Assembly (NCBI GenBank): GCA_028291945.1
Contig: JAQGNH010000247.1
Location: forward strand, 392-64,391
Length of the DNA stretch: 64,000 bases
Origin: Betaproteobacteria bacterium
GTDB lineage: Bacteria > Pseudomonadota > Gammaproteobacteria > Burkholderiales > SG8-41
Reading direction: 5' to 3'
The stretch's first letter is position 1. Every line of letters starts with the position of its first letter. This document shows positions 34,688 through 54,046 of the stretch, piece by piece. The notes below the pieces were generated by a model. That model was not told where the DNA came from. It ran no database searches and was given only the letters and a program-made list of their open reading frames with translations. The translations under genes and the position numbers were made by a program.

Positions 34688-36067
34688 TAATGCCGGCACG
34701 CTTCCTATGGAGCCTGCTCCCATCGTCAGCACCACATCGCCATCACGCGCTGCAGCGCGTATCGCTTCAGGCATTTCAGCTACGGTGTCGACAAAAATAG
34801 GCTCGACTTTGCCGTGCACACGGATCGCCCGCGCGAGCGCGCGACCGTCAGCTGCGACGATCGGCTGCTCGCCCGCCGGATAAACTTCGGTGAGCACGAG
34901 TACGTCCGTAGTCGAAAGCACTTTGACGAAGTCCTCGAAGCAATCGCGGGTGCGCGTATAGCGGTGAGGCTGGAAAGCGAGCACCAGACGCCGCCCGGGG
35001 AAAGCGCCACGCGCTGCCGCGAGGGTCGCGGCCATCTCCGCCGGGTGGTGGCCGTAATCGTCGACCAGCAGTAACCGACCGCCGTCTGCAAGCCGGATTT
35101 CCCCACACTGCTGAAACCGCCGACCGACACCTTTAAAGCTCGCGAGCGCTGAGACTATTTTTTCCGGCGCGACGCCGACTTCGAGACCTGCAGCGATCGC
35201 GGCGAGCGCGTTCTGCACGTTGTGCACTCCGGGGAGGTTCAGCGTGACGTCGAACTCGATCGCAGGCGAACCATTTGCCGCACAAACTGCACGGAACGCC
35301 ATCTTTCCGCCTTGCGCTTCGATGTTCACCGCTCGCACTTGCGCTTCGGGCGCGAGACCGTACGTGACGAGCGTCTTGGGCACGCGGGGCGCGATCTCGC
35401 GCACCCCCGCATCATCGATACAGATGATTGCCACGCCATAGAACGGCAGTCGCTGCAGGAAATAGATGAATGACTGTCTCAGTTTGTCGATGGAGTGGTC
35501 GTACGTCGCCATGTGATCGGCGTCGATATTGGTAACGATCGCGAGACACGGCTGCAGATACAGAAACGATGCGTCGGATTCGTCGGCTTCGACGACGATG
35601 AACTCGCCTTTACCGAGCCGCGCGTTCGAGCCGACAGCTTCGACGCGTCCGCCGATGACGAATGTCGGATCGAGCCCCCCTTCCGCGAGCACACTGGCGG
35701 TCAGGCTCGTCGTCGTGGTCTTACCGTGAGTGCCGGCCACCGCAATGCCCTGCTTCAGCCGCATCAACTCAGCGAGCATCAGTGCCCGCGGCACGACGGG
35801 AATCTTCTTTGCGCGAGCCGCCTGTACCTCGGGGTTGTCCTCAGCCACCGCGCTTGAGATTACGACCGCATTCGCACCGGCGATGTTGTCTTCGGAGTGG
35901 CCCTTCGAAATTCTTGCACCAAGCCGCTGAAGATGGCGGGTCACGGGGCTTTCAGAGAGATCGGATCCGCTCACGCGATATTCGAGATTCAGCAGTACTT
36001 CGGCGATGCCGCTCATGCCGACGCCGCCTATGCCAACGAAATGGATGTGCTTGACTTTGTGTCTCAT
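34670..36067 (-). CDS. murC: UDP-N-acetylmuramate--L-alanine ligase
   Basis: [25 protein letters not shown] from ATG 36067. The track ORF starts 16 codons earlier, at 36115. Confidence 0.95.
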
Positions 36068-36167
36068 CGCATCCGCCTGGATCGAGATGAGCGCAAACGG
36101 GAGGCCAGCGTCCAACGCGCGGGCAACGCTGCTGTTGATCCGTTCTCCGCTTTCATCGCCAGGATCT

Positions 36168-37280
36168 TCATGCGGCGAGTCTCATGCAGACTTCCGCGAC
36201 CGTACGCGTTGCGTCCGGCTTGCCCGCAGCTCTCGCCTGTTTCGCCATCGCGAGCAACTTGTCACGCGTGAATTCAGCGAGCAGATCTGCAAGACGCTGC
36301 GGCGTAAGCTCGCTTTGCGGTATGAGCAGCGCGGCGCCGCGCTCTGCGAGGAAGCGCGCGTTTTGCGTCTGATGATCGTCGACTGCTTGCGGAAACGGTA
36401 TCAGGACAGCAGGCACACCCGCGGCTGCCAGCTCGGCAATGGTTGAAGCGCCAGCGCGGCAGATCATCAGGTCGGCCGCAGCGTAGCTTGCCGCCATATC
36501 TTCGATGAACCCAATAATGCTCGCCTCAACGGCTGCCGAAGCGTAGTTCGCGCGCACCGCATCGAGATGAGCGGCGCCCGCCTGGTGTATCACTTCAGGA
36601 CGGACACTCTGTGACAATCGTGCGATCGCTTGCGGAACGACATCGTTCAGCGCTTTCGCACCCTGACTTCCGCCGAGTACGAGCACGCGCAATCGCCCGT
36701 GACGTCCCGCAAAGCGCTGTTCCGGCGGCGCGATCGCTGCGATGTCTGCCCGAACCGGGTTGCCGCTCCACTCGGCCTTGGCCCGCTTGCCGAAAGCCCC
36801 TGGAAAACCGAGGAGCACCTTGTCTGCAACATGACCGAGCACCCGGTTCGTGAGCCCTGCGACTGAATTCTGCTCGTGAATGACCAGCGGCCGATTGAAG
36901 AGACTCGCCATCATGCCGCCGGGGAAAGCAACGTAACCGCCCATACCGAGCACGACGTCCGGACGATGCGCGAAGAGCGCACGCGCGCTCTGCACGAACG
37001 CAATGAGCAGATTGAGCGGCAGCAGCGCAGCACGGACCAGACCTTTGCCGCGCAGGCCGGACATTCGGATCCACGCCATCGTGTAACCCTTAGCCGGCAC
37101 GATGCGGGCCTCCATGCCCGCACGCGAGCCGAGCCATACGACGTTCCAGCCCGCGGCGCGCACGTGCTCTGCTACGGAAAGTGCCGGAAAAATATGGCCA
37201 CCGGTGCCGCCGGCCATGACCATCAGAGTTCGCCGCCCCTGGGCGCTCGGCGTTGGGTCGCGTTGAACAGTATTGATCAT
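36168..37280 (-). CDS. murG: UDP-N-acetylglucosamine--N-acetylmuramyl-(pentapeptide) pyrophosphoryl-undecaprenol GlcNAc transferase
   Basis: …[16 protein letters not shown]…, glycosyltransferase 28 family. Confidence 0.95.
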
Positions 37281-37315
37281 ACTGTCAGGCCCTTCGCGAG
37301 CCTGCCGTTTTGGCT
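37277..37315 (-). other. Orphan duplicate of the ftsW 3' tail, whose TGA overlaps the murG ATG
   Basis: Reads [15 protein letters not shown] against the in-use [14 protein letters not shown] at 37372. 30/35 ungapped nt identity, offset 95 bp. Confidence 0.8.
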
Positions 37316-37371
37316 ACGCCGAAACAGGCAGCCATCAGTTCCAAATTCGCCATGTGCCAACGCTCGCCTAG

Positions 37372-38532
37372 TCATACTGTCAGGCCTTTCGCGAGCTGCC
37401 TGTTTTCCCAATCGACACGCAGAAGTATTGCGAGGGCGGCACACGTTGCCGCGAGGGCGCTGCCGCCGAACGACAGCAGCGGCAGCGTCAGGCCCTTTGT
37501 GGGCAATACGCCCATGTTCACGCCCATATTGATGATCGCCTGCACGCCGATCCACAGGCCGACGCCTTGCGCGACAAGCGATGCGAAATAGCGCTCGAGC
37601 ATGGCCGCGCGGCGCCCTATTGCAAATGCCCGCGCCACGACCCACCCAAACATGAGCACGATCAAAGCGACGCCCACGAAGCCAAGCTCTTCGGCGATGA
37701 CAGCGAGGAGGAAATCCGTGTGCGCCTCCGGAAGGTAAAACAGTTTCTCGACGCTTCCGCCCAGGCCGACACCGAACCATTCTCCACGGCCGAATGCGAT
37801 CAATGCATGCGAGAGCTGATAGCCTTTCCCATACGGATCGGCCCAGGGGTCCATGAAACCGACCACCCGCTGCATGCGATAAGGCGAGATCCAGATCAGC
37901 AGCAGGAAGCCGATGATCAGCATGACGATCAAGCCAGCGAACAGACGCCAGTTCATGCCGCCGAGGAAGAGGATGCCCATCGCAATGACCGTGATGACGG
38001 CGAACGCGCCGAAATCCGGCTCACGCAACAACAGGCCGCCGGTGAGCAGCATCACGAAAAACATCGGCATGAAGCCGCGACGCAGGCTGTGCATGAACGC
38101 GGCCTTGCGTACGGTGTAGTCGGCGGCGTAAAGAACGCAGCACACCTTCATGAGCTCGGAAGGCTGGAAGTTCGCGACATACAGCGAGATCCAGCGCCGA
38201 CTGCCGTTCACTTCGCGTCCGATGCCGGGCACGAGCACGAGCATGAGGAACGCGAGCGCAACGACGAAAAGGTAAGGCGCAGCTTGTTGCCACAGCCGGG
38301 TCGGCACCTGGAACGCGACGACCGCGAACACGAGGGCGATAGCAACAAAAAACGTGTGACGCACGAGATAGTACGTCGGCTGATAGCCCGTGCTGCGCCC
38401 GGCTTCGGCAATAGCGATCGACGAGGAATAGACCATCACCACACCCAGCGCGAGCAGCAGGATCGTGCACCACACGAGAGGGACGTCGTACTCGGCGACC
38501 GACGCGCGCTTCTTGCTCTCGCGGTAATACAT
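37372..38532 (-). CDS. ftsW: Cell division protein FtsW (SEDS family)
   Basis: Start [21 protein letters not shown] at 38532. Polytopic, …[21 protein letters not shown]… The track ORF adds 37 spurious aa overlapping murD. Confidence 0.93.
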
Positions 38533-38540
38533 GGCCTGGC

Positions 38541-39941
38541 TCACGGCAGGCGTCCTTCCTCTGTCGCTGCGAGAGCCTTCACGGCGGCAACAAAGACCTG
38601 AGCGCGGTGCACGTAACTCGTGAACATGTCGTAGCTCGCACACGCGGGAGACAACAGCACGGCATCTCCCGTACGGCTCTCGCTGTAGGCGGCTTGCACC
38701 GCCTCTTCCAACGTCGAAGCGTGCAGCACGCGAACGCCTGAACCGGTCAGCACGTGCTCGATCTGCGGTGCATCGCGCCCGATCAACACCACTGCGCGCG
38801 CATGAGTAGATATTGCTCGGGTGAGAGGCGAAAAGTTCTGCCCTTTGCCGTCTCCCCCGGCGATGAGCACGACGGGTACGGTCATGCCGTTCAGCGCGGC
38901 AACCGTCGCACCGACATTGGTGCCCTTGGAATCATCGTAGAACGTGATGCCGCGCACCTCTGCAACTTTTTCGAGCCGGTGCGGTAAGCCCCGAAAGCGC
39001 CGCAGGCCTTCGAGCATAGTGCTCTCAGGCATTCCGATCGCATCGCAGAGCGCCAGTGCCGCGAGCGCGTTTGCAGCGTTGTGCAAGCCGGCGACCGGCA
39101 GCTCGTCGATGGGCATCAACGTGTCGCCACCGCGGAGGAGCATCGAATGGCCCGAGACGCCCCAGTCGTGATCGTTTGCCGGCGCGTCAAGACCAAAGGT
39201 GGTGGCGTGCTTCCCGGGACGGGCCATGCGCATGCTCCACGCATCCTGTCGGTTCAACACCTGCACACCGGCGCCTGCGAACACGCGTGCTTTCGCATCG
39301 GCGTATTCGTCCATGCCGTCGTATCGATCGAGGTGATCTTCAGTCACGTTGAGCACGGTGGCTGCGTCTGCGCGCAGGCTGGACGTGCTTTCAAGCTGAA
39401 AGCTAGAGAGCTCCAGCACGAATACATCCGGCATCGCTTTGCCGTTTTCGATTTCGGTCAGGGCATCCAGTACCGGCAATCCGATGTTTCCGGCCACAAT
39501 CGTCGCTCGTCCGCTAACGCGCGAAACTTCACCTGCCATTGCGGTCACGGTGCTCTTACCGTTCGAGCCCGTGATCGCAACGACCTGCGGCCTTGCCCTC
39601 GATTGTCGGGCGGCAACATCGTCGAGGGTGCCCGCGAACATCTCGACATCGCCCACGACAGGGACACCGCGTCGAGTCGCTCCCGCTATTGATGCTTCGC
39701 GACGATCGACTCCAGGACTGATTGCGATGACATCAGCGCGCGCGAAATCACGCTCGCTGAAGGGGCCGGTCGAAATCGGCACGTCCGGCGACTCCGTTTC
39801 GAGCGTGCGTTTGTGTGGTGGATGCGCGCGGCTGTCAGCGACCCTAACTCGCGCACCGTGACGCACGAGCCACCGGGTCATCGACAGACCTGTGTCACCG
39901 AGTCCGAGCACCAGCACGTTCCTGTCTTTCCAATCCAGCAT
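38541..39941 (-). CDS. murD: UDP-N-acetylmuramoylalanine--D-glutamate ligase
   Basis: …[12 protein letters not shown]…, …[10 protein letters not shown]… (Mur ligase P-loop). Confidence 0.95.
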
Positions 39942-40002
39942 CCTTAAACCACGTCATAAGCGGTAAGCCGTTTCATGCGTCCGACGGCTCATGGTTCACG
40001 AC

Positions 40003-40083
40003 TCACCGCAGCTTCAGCGTCGACAAGCCGATTAGCACCAACATCATCGAAATGATCCAGAAGCGCACGGGCTGGTTTTGGCT
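40003..40083 (-). other. Orphan duplicate of the mraY 3' tail in the mraY-murD spacer
   Basis: Translates to [25 protein letters not shown]. The last 21 aa are identical to those of MraY, which ends at 40163. 11 codons differ and all are synonymous. Offset 160 bp. Confidence 0.85.
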
Positions 40084-40162
40084 CCGGCCGGCCGACACAC
40101 CACGCTCGACCTTAACTTGCTTCGCAAGTTAGCCTTCACCGAAACCAAGTTGTCGTGCACTA

Positions 40163-41248
40163 TCATCTGAGCTTCAGTGTAGAAAGACCTATCAGCACTA
40201 ACATCATTGAGATGATCCAGAAGCGCACGACAACTTGGTTTTCCTTCCATCCTTTGAGCTCATAGTGGTGATGCAGCGGCGCCATTCGGAAAATGCGTTT
40301 GCCCGTGAGCTTGAAGGACGCGACCTGCAGCATCACCGACAAAGTCTCCACGACAAACACGCCACCCATCACCAGCAGCACGATTTCCTGCCTCACGATC
40401 ACGGCCATGGTCCCAAGCGCTGCGCCAAGCGCGAGCGCACCGACGTCACCCATGAAGACTTCCGCTGGATAGGCGTTGAACCATAGGAACGCGAGACCCG
40501 CGCCTGCCAATGCACCGCAGATCACTGCAAGCTCGCTCGCGCCAGGGATATAGGGGAAATTGAGATATTTCGAGAAGACGGCGTGACCGGCGACGTACGC
40601 AAATACGCCGAGCGCGCTGCCGATCATGACGGTCGGCATGATCGCAAGGCCATCGAGCCCATCCGTGAGGTTGACGGCATTGCTCGTGCCGACTATGACG
40701 AAATAGGTCATCACGATGAAACCTATCCAGCCGAGCGGATACGCCACCTGTTTGAAGAAGGGGACGATGAATGCCGTCTGAGCGGGCAGGTTCGTGGAAA
40801 ACGCGATATACCACGCCGCAGTGACGCCGAATACCGACTGCCAGAAGAACTTGGTGCGCGCGGAAAGTCCTTTGGGATTGCGGTGTACGACTTTTCGGTA
40901 ATCGTCGATCCAGCCGATCGCGCCGAAAGCCACTGTCACCCACAGAACGACCCATACGAATCGGTTACTCAGGTCCGCCCACAGTAGCGTGGTCACCACC
41001 ACGGAAACGAGGATCAGTGCGCCACCCATCGTCGGCGTACCGGCTTTCGTGAGGTGGCTCTGGGGACCATCGCTGCGCACGGCCTGCCCTATTTTGTATG
41101 CCGTGAGCTTGCGGATCATCGCCGGGCCGACGACGAATGAAAGCACGAGCGCAGTCAGGCACGCGAGCACTGCGCGCAACGTGATGTAGTTGAACACGTT
41201 GAAAGCGCGGATATCCTTCCCCAACAGCTGCGCGAGCTCTAAGAGCAT
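40163..41248 (-). CDS. mraY: Phospho-N-acetylmuramoyl-pentapeptide transferase
   Basis: …NVFNYITLR…, …[10 protein letters not shown]…, …[12 protein letters not shown]…. Confidence 0.97.
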
Positions 41249-41272
41249 CGTGAACTCCCGACGGGAATACGG

Positions 41273-41301
41273 GATGAATGCGGAATACGGAATGAAAACC
41301 G
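41273..41301 (-). repeat. GAATG-rich repeat element, copy B, 24 nt upstream of the mraY ATG
   Basis: Forward gatgaatgcggaatacggaatgaaaaccg. See copy A at 6306-6341. Confidence 0.6.
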
Positions 41302-41333
41302 CATGGCACGTGTCACGTGAGTGGTTTTACTCA

Positions 41334-42716
41334 TCATTCGCCGTTTGTCATTTCCAACGCGTTTACCACGCGTTCCATCTTCATGAAGCGTGAACCTTTC
41401 ACGAGCACTGTCACGTCAGGCGCGAGCGCATCCTGAAGATCTTCAAGCAGATCTTCGATGCGCGTGAAATGCTTGGCGTCAGCGCCAAACGCCTTGGTGG
41501 CCTCGGCCGAGTTCGCACCCAGCGCCAGCATGCGGTCGAGACGCGCTTCTTTAGCGACGGCACCCACTTCTGCGTGCAGGCGCGGCGCGTCAGGACCGAG
41601 CTCGCCCATATCACCGAACACGAGAATTTTGCGCCCGGGCGCCTGCGCCAGTACCGAGATCGCTGCACGTACGGACTCGGGGTTGGCGTTATACGTGTCG
41701 TCGATCAGTACAGCCCCCTTGCGGCCACGCTTTCTCTGAAGGCGGCCTTTGATTCCTGAAAACCGCCCGAGCCCTGCTGCAATCACGTTCAGCGGGATAT
41801 CGAGCGCCGTTGCAGCTGCAGCGGCAGCTAGCGCATTGCGAACGTTGTGTACCCCGGGCGCACCGAGCTGCACGTTTGCTTCACCGCTGGAATGTCGCAA
41901 TACGATATCGCTGTCGAGCTCACGTAGCCTGAAGCTGCCTGTTACGGCAGCAGCGTGCTCTAGGCCAAAGTCAACGCACGGCCGCGATTTCGTGAGCTCG
42001 CGCCACAGCGGAGCGTAACGATCGTCGGCGTTGAAGACGGCGGTCGCTTCGGGCCGTAGAGATTCAAAAATTTCGCCTTTGGCGCGTGCGATCGCTTCCT
42101 CCGATCCGAGGAATTCAATGTGGGCACGCCCGGCGTTCGTCACGAGTGCTACGTCCGGATCGGCGAGATCGGCAAGGTAACGAATCTCGCCCGCGTGATT
42201 CATCCCCATCTCGATAACGGCATAACGGTGCACCGGGGTGAGCTCGAGCAGCATCAACGGCAGGCCGATGTCATTGTTGAGATTTCCGCGCGTCGCAAGC
42301 ACCGGGTCTTCAGCCGCTCCCCCTGCATCGCGCGACGCGTGACGAAGAATCGCAGCAAGCATCTCCTTGACCGTCGTTTTGCCGCTGCTGCCCGTAAGCG
42401 CGACGAGCGGCATTCTGAAACGGCTGCGCCAGTGTGCCGCAAGGCGGCCCAGCCCAAGGCGAGTATCGTCGACGACGATCAGCGGCAGGCGCTCTGCGGC
42501 CTGCAGCGAAAAGGCGGTGTCGACCATCGCGGCCGCCGCGCCTGCACCTGCTGCGGCCCGGAGAAAGCCGTGGCCGTCATAGCGCTCGCCGCGCAGCGCC
42601 ACGAAAAGATTTCCTCGTTTGAGGGTGCGCGTATCCGTGCTCACCCCGGAAAAATCGACGTCGCCGCCAACGAGTCTGGCGTCTACGGCGTTCGCGGCCT
42701 CACTGAGCCGCATCAT
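41334..42716 (-). CDS. murF: UDP-N-acetylmuramoyl-tripeptide--D-alanyl-D-alanine ligase
   Basis: …LTGSSGKTTVKEM…, Mur ligase family. Overlaps the murE stop. Confidence 0.95.
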   Translation of the reverse strand: MMRLSEAANAVDARLVGGDVDFSGVSTDTRTLKRGNLFVALRGERYDGHGFLRAAAGAGAAAAMVDTAFSLQAAERLPLIVVDDTRLGLGRLAAHWRSRFRMPLVALTGSSGKTTVKEMLAAILRHASRDAGGAAEDPVLATRGNLNNDIGLPLMLLELTPVHRYAVIEMGMNHAGEIRYLADLADPDVALVTNAGRAHIEFLGSEEAIARAKGEIFESLRPEATAVFNADDRYAPLWRELTKSRPCVDFGLEHAAAVTGSFRLRELDSDIVLRHSSGEANVQLGAPGVHNVRNALAAAAAATALDIPLNVIAAGLGRFSGIKGRLQRKRGRKGAVLIDDTYNANPESVRAAISVLAQAPGRKILVFGDMGELGPDAPRLHAEVGAVAKEARLDRMLALGANSAEATKAFGADAKHFTRIEDLLEDLQDALAPDVTVLVKGSRFMKMERVVNALEMTNGE

Positions 42717-48596: not shown

Positions 48597-49115
48597 ATGC
48601 TCATGCGGCGTCGGCTCTACTTCGTTCTGCCTGATATCCAATGTGCGCGCGCCATGCTCGATGACATTCTGCTCGCGCGCATCGAGTGTCGGCATATCCA
48701 CTTCTTGTCACGACGCGATACGTTGCCCGCTGATCTGCCCGAGGCCAACGTACTGCAGAAAACCGACATCGTGCACGGAGCACAGGTCGGGATTGCGATA
48801 GGAGGTGTCGTCGGTGCAATCGCCGGCGGCTTGCTCGTCTTTTTTCCACCCGAAGGCGTCACGCTCAAACTCATCACGGTACTCATCGTCGCGATCGGTG
48901 GCGCTTTGTTCGGCGCGTGGGCGTCGAGCATGGTGGCTAGCTCGGTGCCGAATTCACGGCTCAAGGCATTTCAGACTGAAATGGACGCGGGGAAAGTACT
49001 CATGATGGTCGACGTGCCGATGGGTCGCGTGGTGGAAATCGGTGAGCTCGTCGCGCGCCGTCATCCAGAGGCGCTGTCGGGCGGCGTGGAGCCGATGATC
49101 CCGGCTTTCCCATAA
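48597..49115 (+). CDS. DUF1269-like small membrane protein
   Basis: ATG 48597 is preceded by AAGGAGG. MLMRRRLYFVLPD…, Gly-rich TM pair (GIAIGGVVGAIAGGLLVF…IVAIGGALFGAWAS). The upstream part of the track ORF overlaps rnpB. Confidence 0.7.
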   Translation: MLMRRRLYFVLPDIQCARAMLDDILLARIECRHIHFLSRRDTLPADLPEANVLQKTDIVHGAQVGIAIGGVVGAIAGGLLVFFPPEGVTLKLITVLIVAIGGALFGAWASSMVASSVPNSRLKAFQTEMDAGKVLMMVDVPMGRVVEIGELVARRHPEALSGGVEPMIPAFP

Positions 49116-49145
49116 ACAAACTTACGGGATTCCGTAAGTTTGTTT
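49114..49145. terminator. Perfect 14-bp stem / 4-nt loop hairpin at the stop codon of the DUF1269-like gene
   Basis: aaacaaacttacgg-gatt-ccgtaagtttgttt. Confidence 0.6.
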
Positions 49146-49160
49146 ACCGGCCGCCGGGCG

Positions 49161-49264
49161 CGGTGAACGAACAGAGGGAAACGCAGGTTTCCCTCCGTAA
49201 CCTCGCTCCGCGAGGCGGGCCGGTGAACGAACAGAGGGAAACCCAGGTTTCCCTCCGTAACCTC
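49161..49264. repeat. Two copies of a 44-bp hairpin-containing (REP-like) unit, 60-bp period
   Basis: cggtgaacgaacagagggaaac[g/c]caggtttccctccgtaacctc at 49161-49204 and 49221-49264 (43/44 identical). Each copy has a 9-bp stem, gagggaaac/gtttccctc. Confidence 0.85.
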
Positions 49265-49356
49265 CCATCCTTATAGTGAGTGCCGCACGCCGCCTTTGTC
49301 CGCGGATCGTTACGCCCGAAGCGCCGCGGCAATCGCAGCGCCTAGAGGCGTAGGTT

Positions 49357-53091: not shown

Positions 53092-54046
<955 letters not shown>

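Follow-up and report, generated by a model that had tools for sequence, protein, structure and literature searches.

The stretch of DNA analyzed here (hereafter, the window) comprises 64,000 nucleotides of contig JAQGNH010000247.1 from the Betaproteobacteria bacterium assembly GCA_028291945.1, and its minus strand carries a betaproteobacterial dcw cluster with open reading frames (ORFs) for mraY (40163-41248), murD (38541-39941), ftsW (37372-38643), and murG (36168-37280). These four ORFs lie on the minus strand, as do all features of the window described below unless a strand is given. At two junctions of the cluster, mraY-murD and ftsW-murG, an inverted repeat encloses the last codons and the stop of the upstream gene, and the end of that gene is present a second time farther downstream. 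A sequence-only reading of the window had drawn attention to both structures and had placed two explanations side by side, namely, a regulatory device of the dcw transcript or a mechanistic footprint left when the duplications arose. Comparison with related loci identifies the two stems as arm pairs (A and A') of a single repeat family, present as a full copy at mraY-murD and as an internally deleted copy at ftsW-murG. This family is very probably a small, nonautonomous palindromic insertion element, apparently undescribed, that is widespread in uncultured Burkholderiales-type Betaproteobacteria.

Inverted repeat and gene-end duplication at mraY-murD

In the sense of the mRNA, the arrangement at mraY-murD begins within mraY at GAAAAC (40238-40243), a target motif of the form G-AAAA-Y that supplies Glu-Asn codons and marks the start of the upstream (N) copy of the duplicated gene end. 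Arm A, AAACCAAGTTGTCGTGC (40225-40241), is native mraY coding sequence and exactly complements 40142-40158, giving a perfect 17-bp stem; the sequence-only reading had the length of the stem and the latter arm right but set the former at 40227-40243, 2 nt off. The loop measures 66 nt (40159-40224) rather than the ~68 nt first given and, as had been described, holds 20 codons and the TGA (40163-40165), along with 4 spacer bases. Most of this loop is segment B of copy N (40163-40224), which consists of the last 20 mraY codons plus the TGA and is the functional gene end, and it is followed by spacer t (TAGT, 40159-40162). Arm A' (GCACGACAACTTGGTTT, 40142-40158) is an inverted copy of arm A, and its TTT doubles as nucleotides 1 to 3 of a palindromic core. 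As delimited by a covariance model and an alignment, the core is present in a long form of 70 nt, TTTCGG ... GCCAAAAC (40075-40144). Its hairpin 1, TAACTTGC-GAA-GCAAGTTA (40113-40131), contains covarying pairs and is the 8-bp hairpin taacttgc-ttc-gcaagtta that had already been noted, correctly, at these positions. Directly 3' of the core's AAAAC, a divergent patch, CAGCCC (40069-40074), stands in place of the native CAAGTTGTC, and patches of the same type occur in other mraY-type copies. The arrangement closes with segment B of the downstream (O) copy (40003-40068), a displaced, native-like mraY end with its TGA at 40003-40005, after which the native murD spacer resumes.

In the 64-kb window, this stem is the only perfect inverted repeat of 17 bp or more with a loop of 30 to 120 nt, and none of that kind arose in 30 dinucleotide shuffles. 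Folding of the minus-strand RNA of 40000-40260 gave a minimum free energy (MFE) of -98.2 kcal/mol (z = -3.0), and the long stem is present in the MFE structure. The gene-end duplications are likewise real, as the earlier description held, with 81% identity between 40163-40229 and 40003-40069 at mraY and 86% identity between 37372-37406 and 37277-37311 at ftsW. The N and O copies of mraY show 15 differences distributed over all base classes, which amount to 11 synonymous codons plus one nonsynonymous patch codon; the nonsynonymous difference is thus confined to the patch, outside segment B. GC content at third codon positions of the mraY end is 0.64 in N and 0.91 in O, and we did not find this decisive as a sign of a foreign upstream copy because 0.64 is within the range of the genome.

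A shorter copy at ftsW-murG

The same order of parts recurs at ftsW-murG. The target motif GAAAAC (37402-37407) again supplies Glu-Asn codons, here of ftsW, and arm A, AAACAGGCAGC (37395-37405), lies in the ftsW coding sequence. Segment B of copy N (37372-37394) holds the last 7 ftsW codons plus the TGA and is followed by a spacer t of 39 nt (37333-37371), arm A' (GCTGCCTGTTT, 37322-37332), a short-form core, TTTCGGCGTAGCCAAAAC (37307-37324), that equals the long form minus 33 internal nt, the patch GGCAGG (37301-37306) 3' of AAAAC, and segment B of copy O (37277-37300), whose TGA (37277-37279) overlaps the murG ATG (37278-37280). The stem is exactly as it had been described, with 37322-37332 pairing with 37395-37405 over 11 bp around a 62-nt loop. 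Taken alone, it is not significant because shuffles reach the same count: inverted repeats of 11 bp or more number 7 in the window, and shuffled sequences have 2.7 on average and up to 7. The RNA of 37270-37420 (-) folds at z = -0.57, with the stem only in the centroid structure, so the proposed comparison with dinucleotide shuffles came out in favor of structure at mraY but not at ftsW. The ftsW stem gains credibility only because it belongs to the same repeat family (covariance-model match at E = 1e-5) and is conserved in relatives.

The closest relative of the window's ftsW copy (L191; 79% nucleotide identity) carries a long-form core at the same place. Relative to that allele, exactly 33 internal nt are missing from the window's core, and the reading frame of the small ORF that bridges the two gene-end copies (see below) is kept. 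The ftsW target itself varies among relatives (CAGGCAGC, CCGGCAGC, CCGTCAAG, GTCGGCAGCT, and CAGGCAAC), and each variant is tracked by its A'.

A covarying repeat family in uncultured Betaproteobacteria

As a comparison set, we fetched 80 dcw loci from GTDB genomes, in which anything from 0 to nearly 300 nt separates mraY from murD and ftsW from murG. The closest relatives in this species-level collection are metagenome-assembled genomes (MAGs) of uncultured Burkholderiales/Betaproteobacteria with a MurD identity of at most 69%, and an identical MraY protein is encoded on 13 metagenome or MAG contigs, including NCBI GCA_034668005.1. Long spacers with the window's layout were found at mraY in L002, L015, L016, L020, L029, and L038 and at ftsW in L004, L006, L018, L029, L030, L038, L049, and L050. 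In the mRNA sense, this layout runs from the gene into GAAAAY-X, segment B with the stop, spacer t, X'TTT (arm A'), CGG-core-GCC, AAAAY, the patch, and a second segment B. A metagenome sample was drawn with a degenerate pattern of the two core ends that fixes TTTCGG, AG, and GCCAAAAY, positions that are therefore invariant in it by construction. At least 120 metagenome contigs matched this pattern, and there were 0 matches in viral contigs, so a phage origin was set aside.

A covariance model (R1), built from a MAFFT alignment of 82 copies, has exactly two matches in the 64-kb window, which is the scope within which copy number was counted: one at mraY-murD (40065-40154; 62.5 bits, E = 8e-19) and one at ftsW-murG (37297-37334; 24.2 bits, E = 1e-5). 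R1 also gave 15 matches in the 80 GTDB dcw loci, all of them at mraY-murD or ftsW-murG junctions and one inverted, and 117 matches in 100 loci among the listed metagenome contigs. Two further places in the window where the motif matched, 33370 and 47350, lie in ordinary coding sequence, that of Ddl (HGRFGEDG) and the 3' part of mraZ, respectively, and are not reported by R1.

The core runs from TTTCGG to GCCAAAAY and forms two covarying hairpins; in the consensus of the 82 copies, three short helices close one hairpin, and a second, GC-rich hairpin of variable length accompanies it. Paired cells make up 97.9% of the alignment, versus 91.1% in shuffles and 25 to 53% in slid controls, and 92 cells show changes on both sides of a pair, versus 27.5 in shuffles, with 0 of 500 shuffles reaching 92. 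The covariation evidence rests on hairpin 1 because the pattern-fixed positions are invariant by construction, and this hairpin carries compensatory substitutions between loci, its covarying pairs across the 82 copies being AU 56/CG 13/GC 9 in one case and UA 34/GC 23/CG 11/AU 10 in another. On the AAAAY strand, G.U pairs are frequent and A.C pairs are rare, which identifies it as the folded strand.

No matching family was found in Rfam, where 36000-42000, scanned at E <= 1, yielded nothing beyond a chance snoRNA match elsewhere, and literature text searches with core strings and related concepts returned nothing relevant. A protein-database search with translated cores found only four matches, each to a "hypothetical protein." Synthetic or engineered recoding of overlapping genes is ruled out by the presence of the module in many environmental MAGs and metagenomes.

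Filled and empty sites

Presence of the element is patchy, and most relatives lack it at both dcw junctions. At the mraY site, GAAAAY is found in 6 of 6 filled genome loci versus 14 of 61 empty ones (Fisher p = 4e-4); the corresponding contrast between filled and empty ftsW sites is not significant.

One contig (L202, identical to L216) permits a close comparison, as it encodes an identical MraY protein, has 93.6% mraY nucleotide identity to the window, and diverges from it by 21% at 4-fold sites. Its mraY site is empty, with 47 nt between mraY and murD, and the GAAAAY motif is present. Arm A, including its unusual CAA GTT GTC codons, is identical in this empty-site allele. The window's downstream copy O differs from the empty allele at 4 positions in 66 nt, and its flank is collinear. 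Arm A and the downstream copy are therefore native. The upstream copy N, by comparison, has 11 differences in its last 49 nt, all of them synonymous, versus 2.8 expected from the rest of mraY (P = 1.6e-4). Judged from this comparison of alleles, the long stem is best read as an insertion footprint.

At ftsW, the short element is present and orthologous in L216 and is therefore older than the split between the window and L216. Both gene-end copies of this element in L216 carry two lineage-specific substitutions in common, a sign of concerted evolution. A block of ~38 to 40 nt, GTTGGCACATGGCGAATTTGGAACTGATGGCTGCCTGTTT (37322-37361 [-]), made up of the 3' 27 nt of the spacer and arm A' with the TTT of the core, is identical in the window and L216 (P ~ 1e-4 at a neutral divergence of 0.21, the 21% seen at 4-fold sites) and nearly identical in L191 also. 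Between the window and L216, sequence on either side of this block varies: the spacer in its first 12 nt, the core, the patch, and the start of murG. This one orthologous pair hints that the ftsW stem region was later kept under constraint.

A second, unrelated palindromic repeat (of the GTGAGG...CCTCAC type, e.g., tgaggagtgaggcgtgagg ... cctcacgcctcacgcctcac) is found at these dcw junctions in other relatives. It was seen in L003 (2410-2545 and 5117-5190), in L191 downstream of the ftsW element, and in L008, L021, L033, L160, and L165.

Insertion architecture and targets

A direct duplication flanks the element in 81 of 112 evaluable copies. It starts exactly at the core's AAAAY in 53 copies and, in most others, 5 to 15 nt later, past the patch. 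The base before the upstream AAAA is G in 38 of 41 nontandem copies, and the distance from the upstream AAAAY to the core is 36 to 111 nt (median, 80). Duplications, where present, are 29 to 98 nt long and 71 to 100% identical; with blunt insertions counted, the range becomes 0 to 98 nt, and segment B spans 0 to 100 nt. The 10 to 20 nt immediately 5' of the core repeat the target (AAAY-X) in inverted orientation, the perfect prefix reaching 17 nt at most, and the complement of A' fits the upstream target better than it fits the downstream copy in 29 cases, equally well in 11, and worse in 1. The 5 to 10 nt that follow the core's AAAAY form the divergent patch. Since A' follows the variants of the local target, we read the stem as a templated inverted copy of the target made at insertion.

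Young copies display this organization most simply. In L095, a perfect 68-nt duplication runs from AAAAC to 3 nt past the OTC stop and encloses an 11-nt spacer, a perfect 13-nt inverted target copy, and the core. The patch is the sole block of differences in young copies, where it spans 5 to 10 nt within the stretch that A' mirrors; the relation between the end of the patch and the length of A' is informative only in such copies, as general divergence blurs it in old ones. Several old copies keep perfect arms of 12 to 16 nt, and in the OTC subfamily A' has decayed to 6 to 7 matching nt.

At least 20 different genes, recognized by their reading frames, by eye, and in part confirmed with Pfam, carry copies. 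The element sits at the 3' ends of ftsW, mraY, argF (OTC), metK, acs, trpE, serS, folE2, phhB (PCD), dnaB, and recA and, in antisense, at the 5' ends of nuoD, ruvC, and murG. In the antisense copy at ftsW-murG (L031, 6067-6149 [-]), the element lies in opposite orientation in the GTTTTT of the MurG GGHVF motif, and the murG 5' end is duplicated. Copies of 66 to 93 nt also occur in frame inside genes, specifically, in genes for an AcrB-type pump (L125 and L094), PurL (L119), a UvrD-like protein (L151), and a Cas9-like N terminus (L143), to which they add 22 to 31 residues (e.g., ...VSAQANLAEGQVKGASAPGRSQN...). For the pump of L125, Pfam ACR_tran spans 231 aa with 200 profile positions, which corresponds to a 31-aa insert; in L119, L143, and L151 the frame is kept, as judged by reading. 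L143, L119, and L125 are minimal insertions without a duplication. Two loci (L152, 1290-1560; L104, 4440-4587) have a copy that interrupts the anticodon loop of tRNA-Phe (CTGA|AAAT), with an intact tRNA-Phe 64 nt downstream. The 5' hairpin of the element is not derived from the target in these tRNA-Phe copies, and it shows a compensatory change between loci (GCCGC/GCGGC versus GCTGC/GCAGC).

Some copies form head-to-tail tandem arrays that include the duplicated host segment, as in L179 (4 units, period 104) and L098 (3 units, period 85); further arrays were found in L106, in L049 (2 identical units), and in L218, a sister contig of the window with an extra unit. In L038, a second copy of a different subfamily sits in the downstream copy of the first element, and its A' complements the variant in that copy. 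Inspection of the genes next to the tandem arrays revealed nothing convincing as a partner enzyme. A neighbor in L128 resembles, by eye, an IS256-type transposase gene and is itself interrupted by the element.

Small ORFs that bridge the two stops

In most copies, the duplicated gene ends are linked by a short ORF. At ftsW-murG in the window, a 32-aa ORF (37277-37375) starts at an ATGA overlap with the ftsW stop, crosses the element, and continues in frame into copy O up to the ATGA overlap with the murG start; most relatives show this arrangement too, among them L006, L029, L030, L038, and L049. Among mraY-type copies, 8 of 10 hold an intact ORF of 46 to 57 aa that ends in the last MraY transmembrane helix. 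In the window, a 40-aa ORF (40044-40166) opens at an ATGA overlap with the mraY stop and is the frameshifted form of a 54-aa ORF in the sister strain L212 (5083-5247, corresponding to window 40003-40166). One extra C in L212 (GTGTGCTCGG versus GTGTGTCGG) restores the ORF, which there opens at the overlap with the mraY stop and closes with the stop codon of the downstream copy. Like the window, 8 of 9 sister contigs have the frameshifted form of the mraY bridging ORF, and in L002 this ORF is broken.

The upstream copy completes the gene, and the native-like downstream copy keeps the original murD or murG junction. An essential operon tolerates the insertion because a small ORF usually bridges the two stop codons. 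No terminator-like or promoter-like sites were found on the gene strand in either spacer. The reading frame through the core is one in mraY-type copies and another in ftsW-type copies; the core is therefore conserved as nucleic acid and not as protein.

Other genes and repeats in the window

The other ORFs scanned in the window (n = 40, non-dcw, Pfam) are ordinary housekeeping genes, and no reverse transcriptase (RT), transposase, integrase, or HUH protein was found among them. After an ORF that ends at 49115, the region 49116-49270 (+) contains a terminator-like hairpin, AAACAAACTTACGG-GATT-CCGTAAGTTTGTTT, and, beyond it, a tandem pair of 60-nt units, each bearing the hairpin GAGGGAAAC-N-CAGGTTTCCCTC (44 nt, 98% identical); these units belong to a different repeat family. 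Two 34-nt direct repeats, 71% identical and 83 nt apart, lie at 53579-53695 (+).

Discussion

The sequence-only reading had suggested that two similarly sized structures at two junctions might serve as RNase III or RNase E processing sites, stabilize the mRNA, or control downstream translation, or else that they might be a footprint of the duplication event. As the primary explanation, the regulatory reading is not supported. The same architecture occurs at more than 20 unrelated genes, in antisense, inside ORFs, and in a tRNA gene, most relatives lack it at their dcw junctions, and the arm decays in the OTC subfamily; the stem is thus no device peculiar to dcw. The footprint reading is supported, in that A' is an inverted copy of the local target, tracks lineage-specific variants of that target, and is part of a mobile repeat.

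How such a footprint arises is less clear-cut, and we tentatively favor a replicative, target-primed insertion with template jumps. The strand complementary to the sense strand of the element would be nicked a few nucleotides 3' of AAAA, and the nicked end would prime on an element template (RNA or single-stranded DNA [ssDNA]) whose 3' tail consists of AAAAY and a few bases from the previous site, the latter giving rise to the patch. After the core has been copied, the polymerase would jump, via AAA/TTT microhomology, to the other side of the nicked strand, and run-off at the nick would generate A', the inverted target copy. A second, staggered nick 0 to 100 nt downstream would then produce the duplication. 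Established copies may spread between orthologous sites by homologous recombination and may expand into tandem arrays. The stem, in this scenario, would be born as a footprint and might afterwards be kept by selection or by hairpin-templated correction. The scheme fits because the A-run target equals the 3' end of the element, the duplication is variable, bases are carried along, the target copy is inverted, and blunt insertions occur. It is possible, although we hold it with some doubt, that the family represents a bacterial, nonautonomous element resembling short interspersed nuclear elements (SINEs), which would integrate when the target primes the copying of an RNA or ssDNA template and the polymerase jumps between templates.

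Several points weigh against target-primed insertion or against a pure footprint. No enzyme was found in the Pfam scan of the window or among the gene neighbors of the arrays. Mobility is deduced from the comparison of loci. The upstream mraY copy is recoded (11 synonymous differences in 49 nt), though the model predicts it to be native, and the downstream copy is native-like; this would need an extra step, such as recombinational import or a Campbell-type unit with a surrogate gene end. In L015 and L020, A' pairs with the downstream A* and not with the upstream target, and A' is mosaic in L038, a young copy. The N and O copies of the MraY end differ at 10 to 12 of 20 codons (window, L015, L016, L020, L113, L141, and L189), yet over 10 loci these differences comprise 78 synonymous versus 7 nonsynonymous codons, and both copies share lineage-specific residues (Cys in L113 and Ile/Phe in L189). 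When the close relatives L015 and L020 are compared, divergence within the locus peaks in the downstream copy O (8 synonymous versus 3 nonsynonymous changes), and the core is identical. This synonymous pattern is unlike a decaying relic and, together with the invariant ftsW A' block, points to constraint. Purifying selection on a microprotein, recombinational refreshment from functional alleles, and selection against repeat identity could each contribute to the synonymous excess.

One alternative gives that constraint the leading role and regards the stems as selected mRNA structures of the dcw operon (RNase III/E sites, 3' stabilizers, or translational coupling to murD and murG), with the repeat as only a carrier. 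Consistent with this, the mraY region folds well below its shuffles with the stem in the MFE structure, the window and L216 agree at every position of the ftsW A' and of the 27 nt preceding it but not in the neighboring sequence, the stems are perfect even where the duplications are only 71 to 80% identical, and the folded strand, according to the G.U and A.C counts, is the mRNA-sense strand. About 90% of the gene-associated copies (assigned by eye) are gene-sense, and the stop/start overlaps are preserved by the bridging ORFs. The breadth of targets and the element-free junctions of most relatives nonetheless make this account unlikely, as do the decay of the OTC-subfamily A' to 6 to 7 matching nt and a fold at ftsW that is no better than shuffles. 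Arm A is moreover translated, so ribosomes would melt the stem, and neither spacer offers a terminator-like or promoter-like site on the gene strand.

A second alternative holds that a small unit (B-t-A'-core-A*) carrying a surrogate gene end integrates by a single crossover (Campbell-type, site-specific or homologous) within homology close to AAAAY, much as integrative islands rebuild the 3' end of the gene they enter, the inverted arm being part of the unit and not a product of insertion. Against the empty allele, the window's upstream copy is native up to ...GGATCATCTC and heavily recoded beyond it, the patch is foreign, and the downstream copy is native, which is the outcome expected of one crossover with a circular or tandem unit. 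The synonymous nature of the N/O differences in 10 loci agrees with this, as does the homology of mraY-type spacers, A', and patches across lineages, and recombination between units is evident from the tandem arrays and from the additional unit of L218. We doubt this explanation, however, since a crossover can make neither the first insertions at new, nonhomologous genes nor the minimal insertions without duplication (L143, L119, and L125), and a double-stranded DNA circle of 95 to 160 bp is physically implausible. The arm A' also complements the recipient's own arm A at 17 of 17 positions, yet the adjacent imported segment is ~24% diverged, and the lineage-specific residues common to N and O speak against import as well.

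A derivative of an ssDNA transposon would be mobilized in trans by a Y1 HUH transposase (TnpA or the REP-associated tyrosine transposase [RAYT]) that recognizes the hairpins and directs insertion beside a pentanucleotide, either as a palindrome-associated transposable element (PATE) of the IS200/IS605 group or as a repetitive extragenic palindrome (REP) or REPIN. Like such elements, the family has hairpins at both ends (A/A' and the core) and a strict short target, G-AAAA-Y, with the element ending in the same pentanucleotide; its GNA triloops and GCGAAGC-type minihairpins are typical of stable ssDNA hairpins, and copies show a strand bias relative to genes and head-to-tail arrays. We nevertheless regard this origin as quite improbable. 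IS200/IS605 and REP families make no target duplication and no inverted target copy, whereas 81 of 112 copies here have a flanking duplication and PATEs have none. The REP hallmark GTAG is not conserved and reads G-N-A-G, no TnpA or RAYT was found in the window or beside the arrays, and G.U wobble fits RNA at least equally well.

The downstream copy might instead be kept as a functional microprotein that mimics the last MraY transmembrane helix, the module having been domesticated in a kind of gene birth. Gene callers do annotate the ORF as a hypothetical protein of 54 aa or 51 aa, and the intact ORF in 8 of 10 mraY-type copies and the synonymous excess, both between N and O and within O of L015/L020, are as such a protein would predict. 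But the window and 8 of 9 sister contigs carry a frameshifted ORF, L002 has a broken one, the frame through the core differs between mraY-type and ftsW-type copies so that the N-terminal part is not conserved as protein, no Pfam family matches the ORF, and recombinational refreshment from functional alleles could yield the same excess of synonymous changes; we find this explanation improbable. Local tandem duplication by replication slippage combined with chance or quasi-palindrome inverted repeats, and no mobile element at all, is scarcely credible, since the direct repeats of 35 to 67 nt that flank both spacers and an 11-bp ftsW stem within chance agree with it, but a covarying conserved core in more than 110 copies at many genes and a 17-bp stem never seen in shuffles do not.

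Comparison with known systems

The family can be set beside several known systems. Non-long terminal repeat retrotransposons and SINEs move by target-primed reverse transcription, which includes "twin priming." The family described here resembles them in its short A/T-run target matching an A-rich element 3' end, in a variable and sometimes long duplication beginning at that motif, in a few bases of 3' transduction, in the possibility of an inverted segment at the 5' junction, and in being nonautonomous. It differs in that no RT or endonuclease was identified, in that an RNA intermediate is only hypothetical, and in its bacterial host, the lack of a poly-A tail and of an internal promoter, and an inverted segment that is target rather than element sequence. 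To our knowledge, a SINE-like, target-primed mode of integration has not been described for bacterial repeats.

Among bacterial repeats, the REP/REPIN/BIME group is similar in comprising short, GC-rich, imperfect palindromes that are nonautonomous and multicopy, conserve structure over sequence, form tandem arrays, and often lie within operons. In the present family, however, GTAG is not conserved (G-N-A-G, with any base at N), and copies are not confined to extragenic DNA but start inside coding sequence at GAAAAY, some of them standing in frame in ORFs or in a tRNA gene. The strict G-AAAA-Y target, the long variable duplication, and the inverted target copy set it further apart, and there is no RAYT in the 64-kb window. 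Miniature inverted-repeat transposable elements (MITEs), such as Correia/NEMIS, ERIC, RUP, and Nezha, are also small, nonautonomous elements with a long hairpin that are cotranscribed with host genes and polymorphic for presence and absence. The terminal inverted repeats of MITEs derive from a parent insertion sequence and their duplication is short and fixed, whereas here only the 7-nt TTTNGGC/GCCNAAA is conserved, no parent insertion sequence was found, the duplication is 0 to 98 nt, and the target is the source of the outer arm.

Rickettsia palindromic elements reportedly lie in frame inside genes and are translated, much as the in-frame copies in the AcrB-type pump, PurL, and the Cas9-like ORF and the bridging ORFs at gene ends would be, but the host clade is unrelated, and so, probably, is the sequence. 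We know of no report of target duplication, or of gene-end preservation by duplication, for those elements. Integrative islands at tRNA, tmRNA, or guaA-type sites share with the present element a proximal copy that completes the gene and a native end displaced downstream as a direct repeat, with copy differences like those between two functional alleles; the unit here is only 95 to 160 nt, however, with no integrase, many targets with nothing but GAAAAY in common, and an inverted arm. Integron attC sites are comparable as structure-defined, imperfect palindromes of 50 to 140 nt that are active as folded single strands, and the inner hairpin GTTAAGC of the present core fits GTTRRRY. We rejected an attC identity because the end boxes do not fit, the ends here being TTTCGG and GCCAAAAY rather than RYYYAAC/GTTRRRY; in addition, the target is duplicated, there is no integrase in the window, and copies lie within the dcw operon in no cassette context. 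A pair of template and variable repeats like that of diversity-generating retroelements was likewise rejected, as the N/O differences are not adenine-specific and no RT was found among the 40 scanned ORFs of the window.

Implications

The combination of a strict GAAAAY target, a long variable duplication, an inverted target copy, and a 3' patch fits no described bacterial transposition pathway, and this insertion signature points to an unknown enzyme or to an unrecognized activity of a known one. The element explains puzzling spacers, small hypothetical ORFs, and gene ends that look recoded within the most conserved bacterial cell-division operon, and the same explanation extends to many other housekeeping genes of environmental Betaproteobacteria. 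In practical terms, the covariance model could flag misannotated gene ends and pseudo-ORFs in MAGs, and the polymorphism between filled and empty sites offers a fine-scale strain marker. More broadly, selfish DNA can colonize essential, translationally coupled genes when the gene end is duplicated and a bridging frame stays open, and, if the target-primed reading is true, selfish DNA would enter essential genes without inactivating them.

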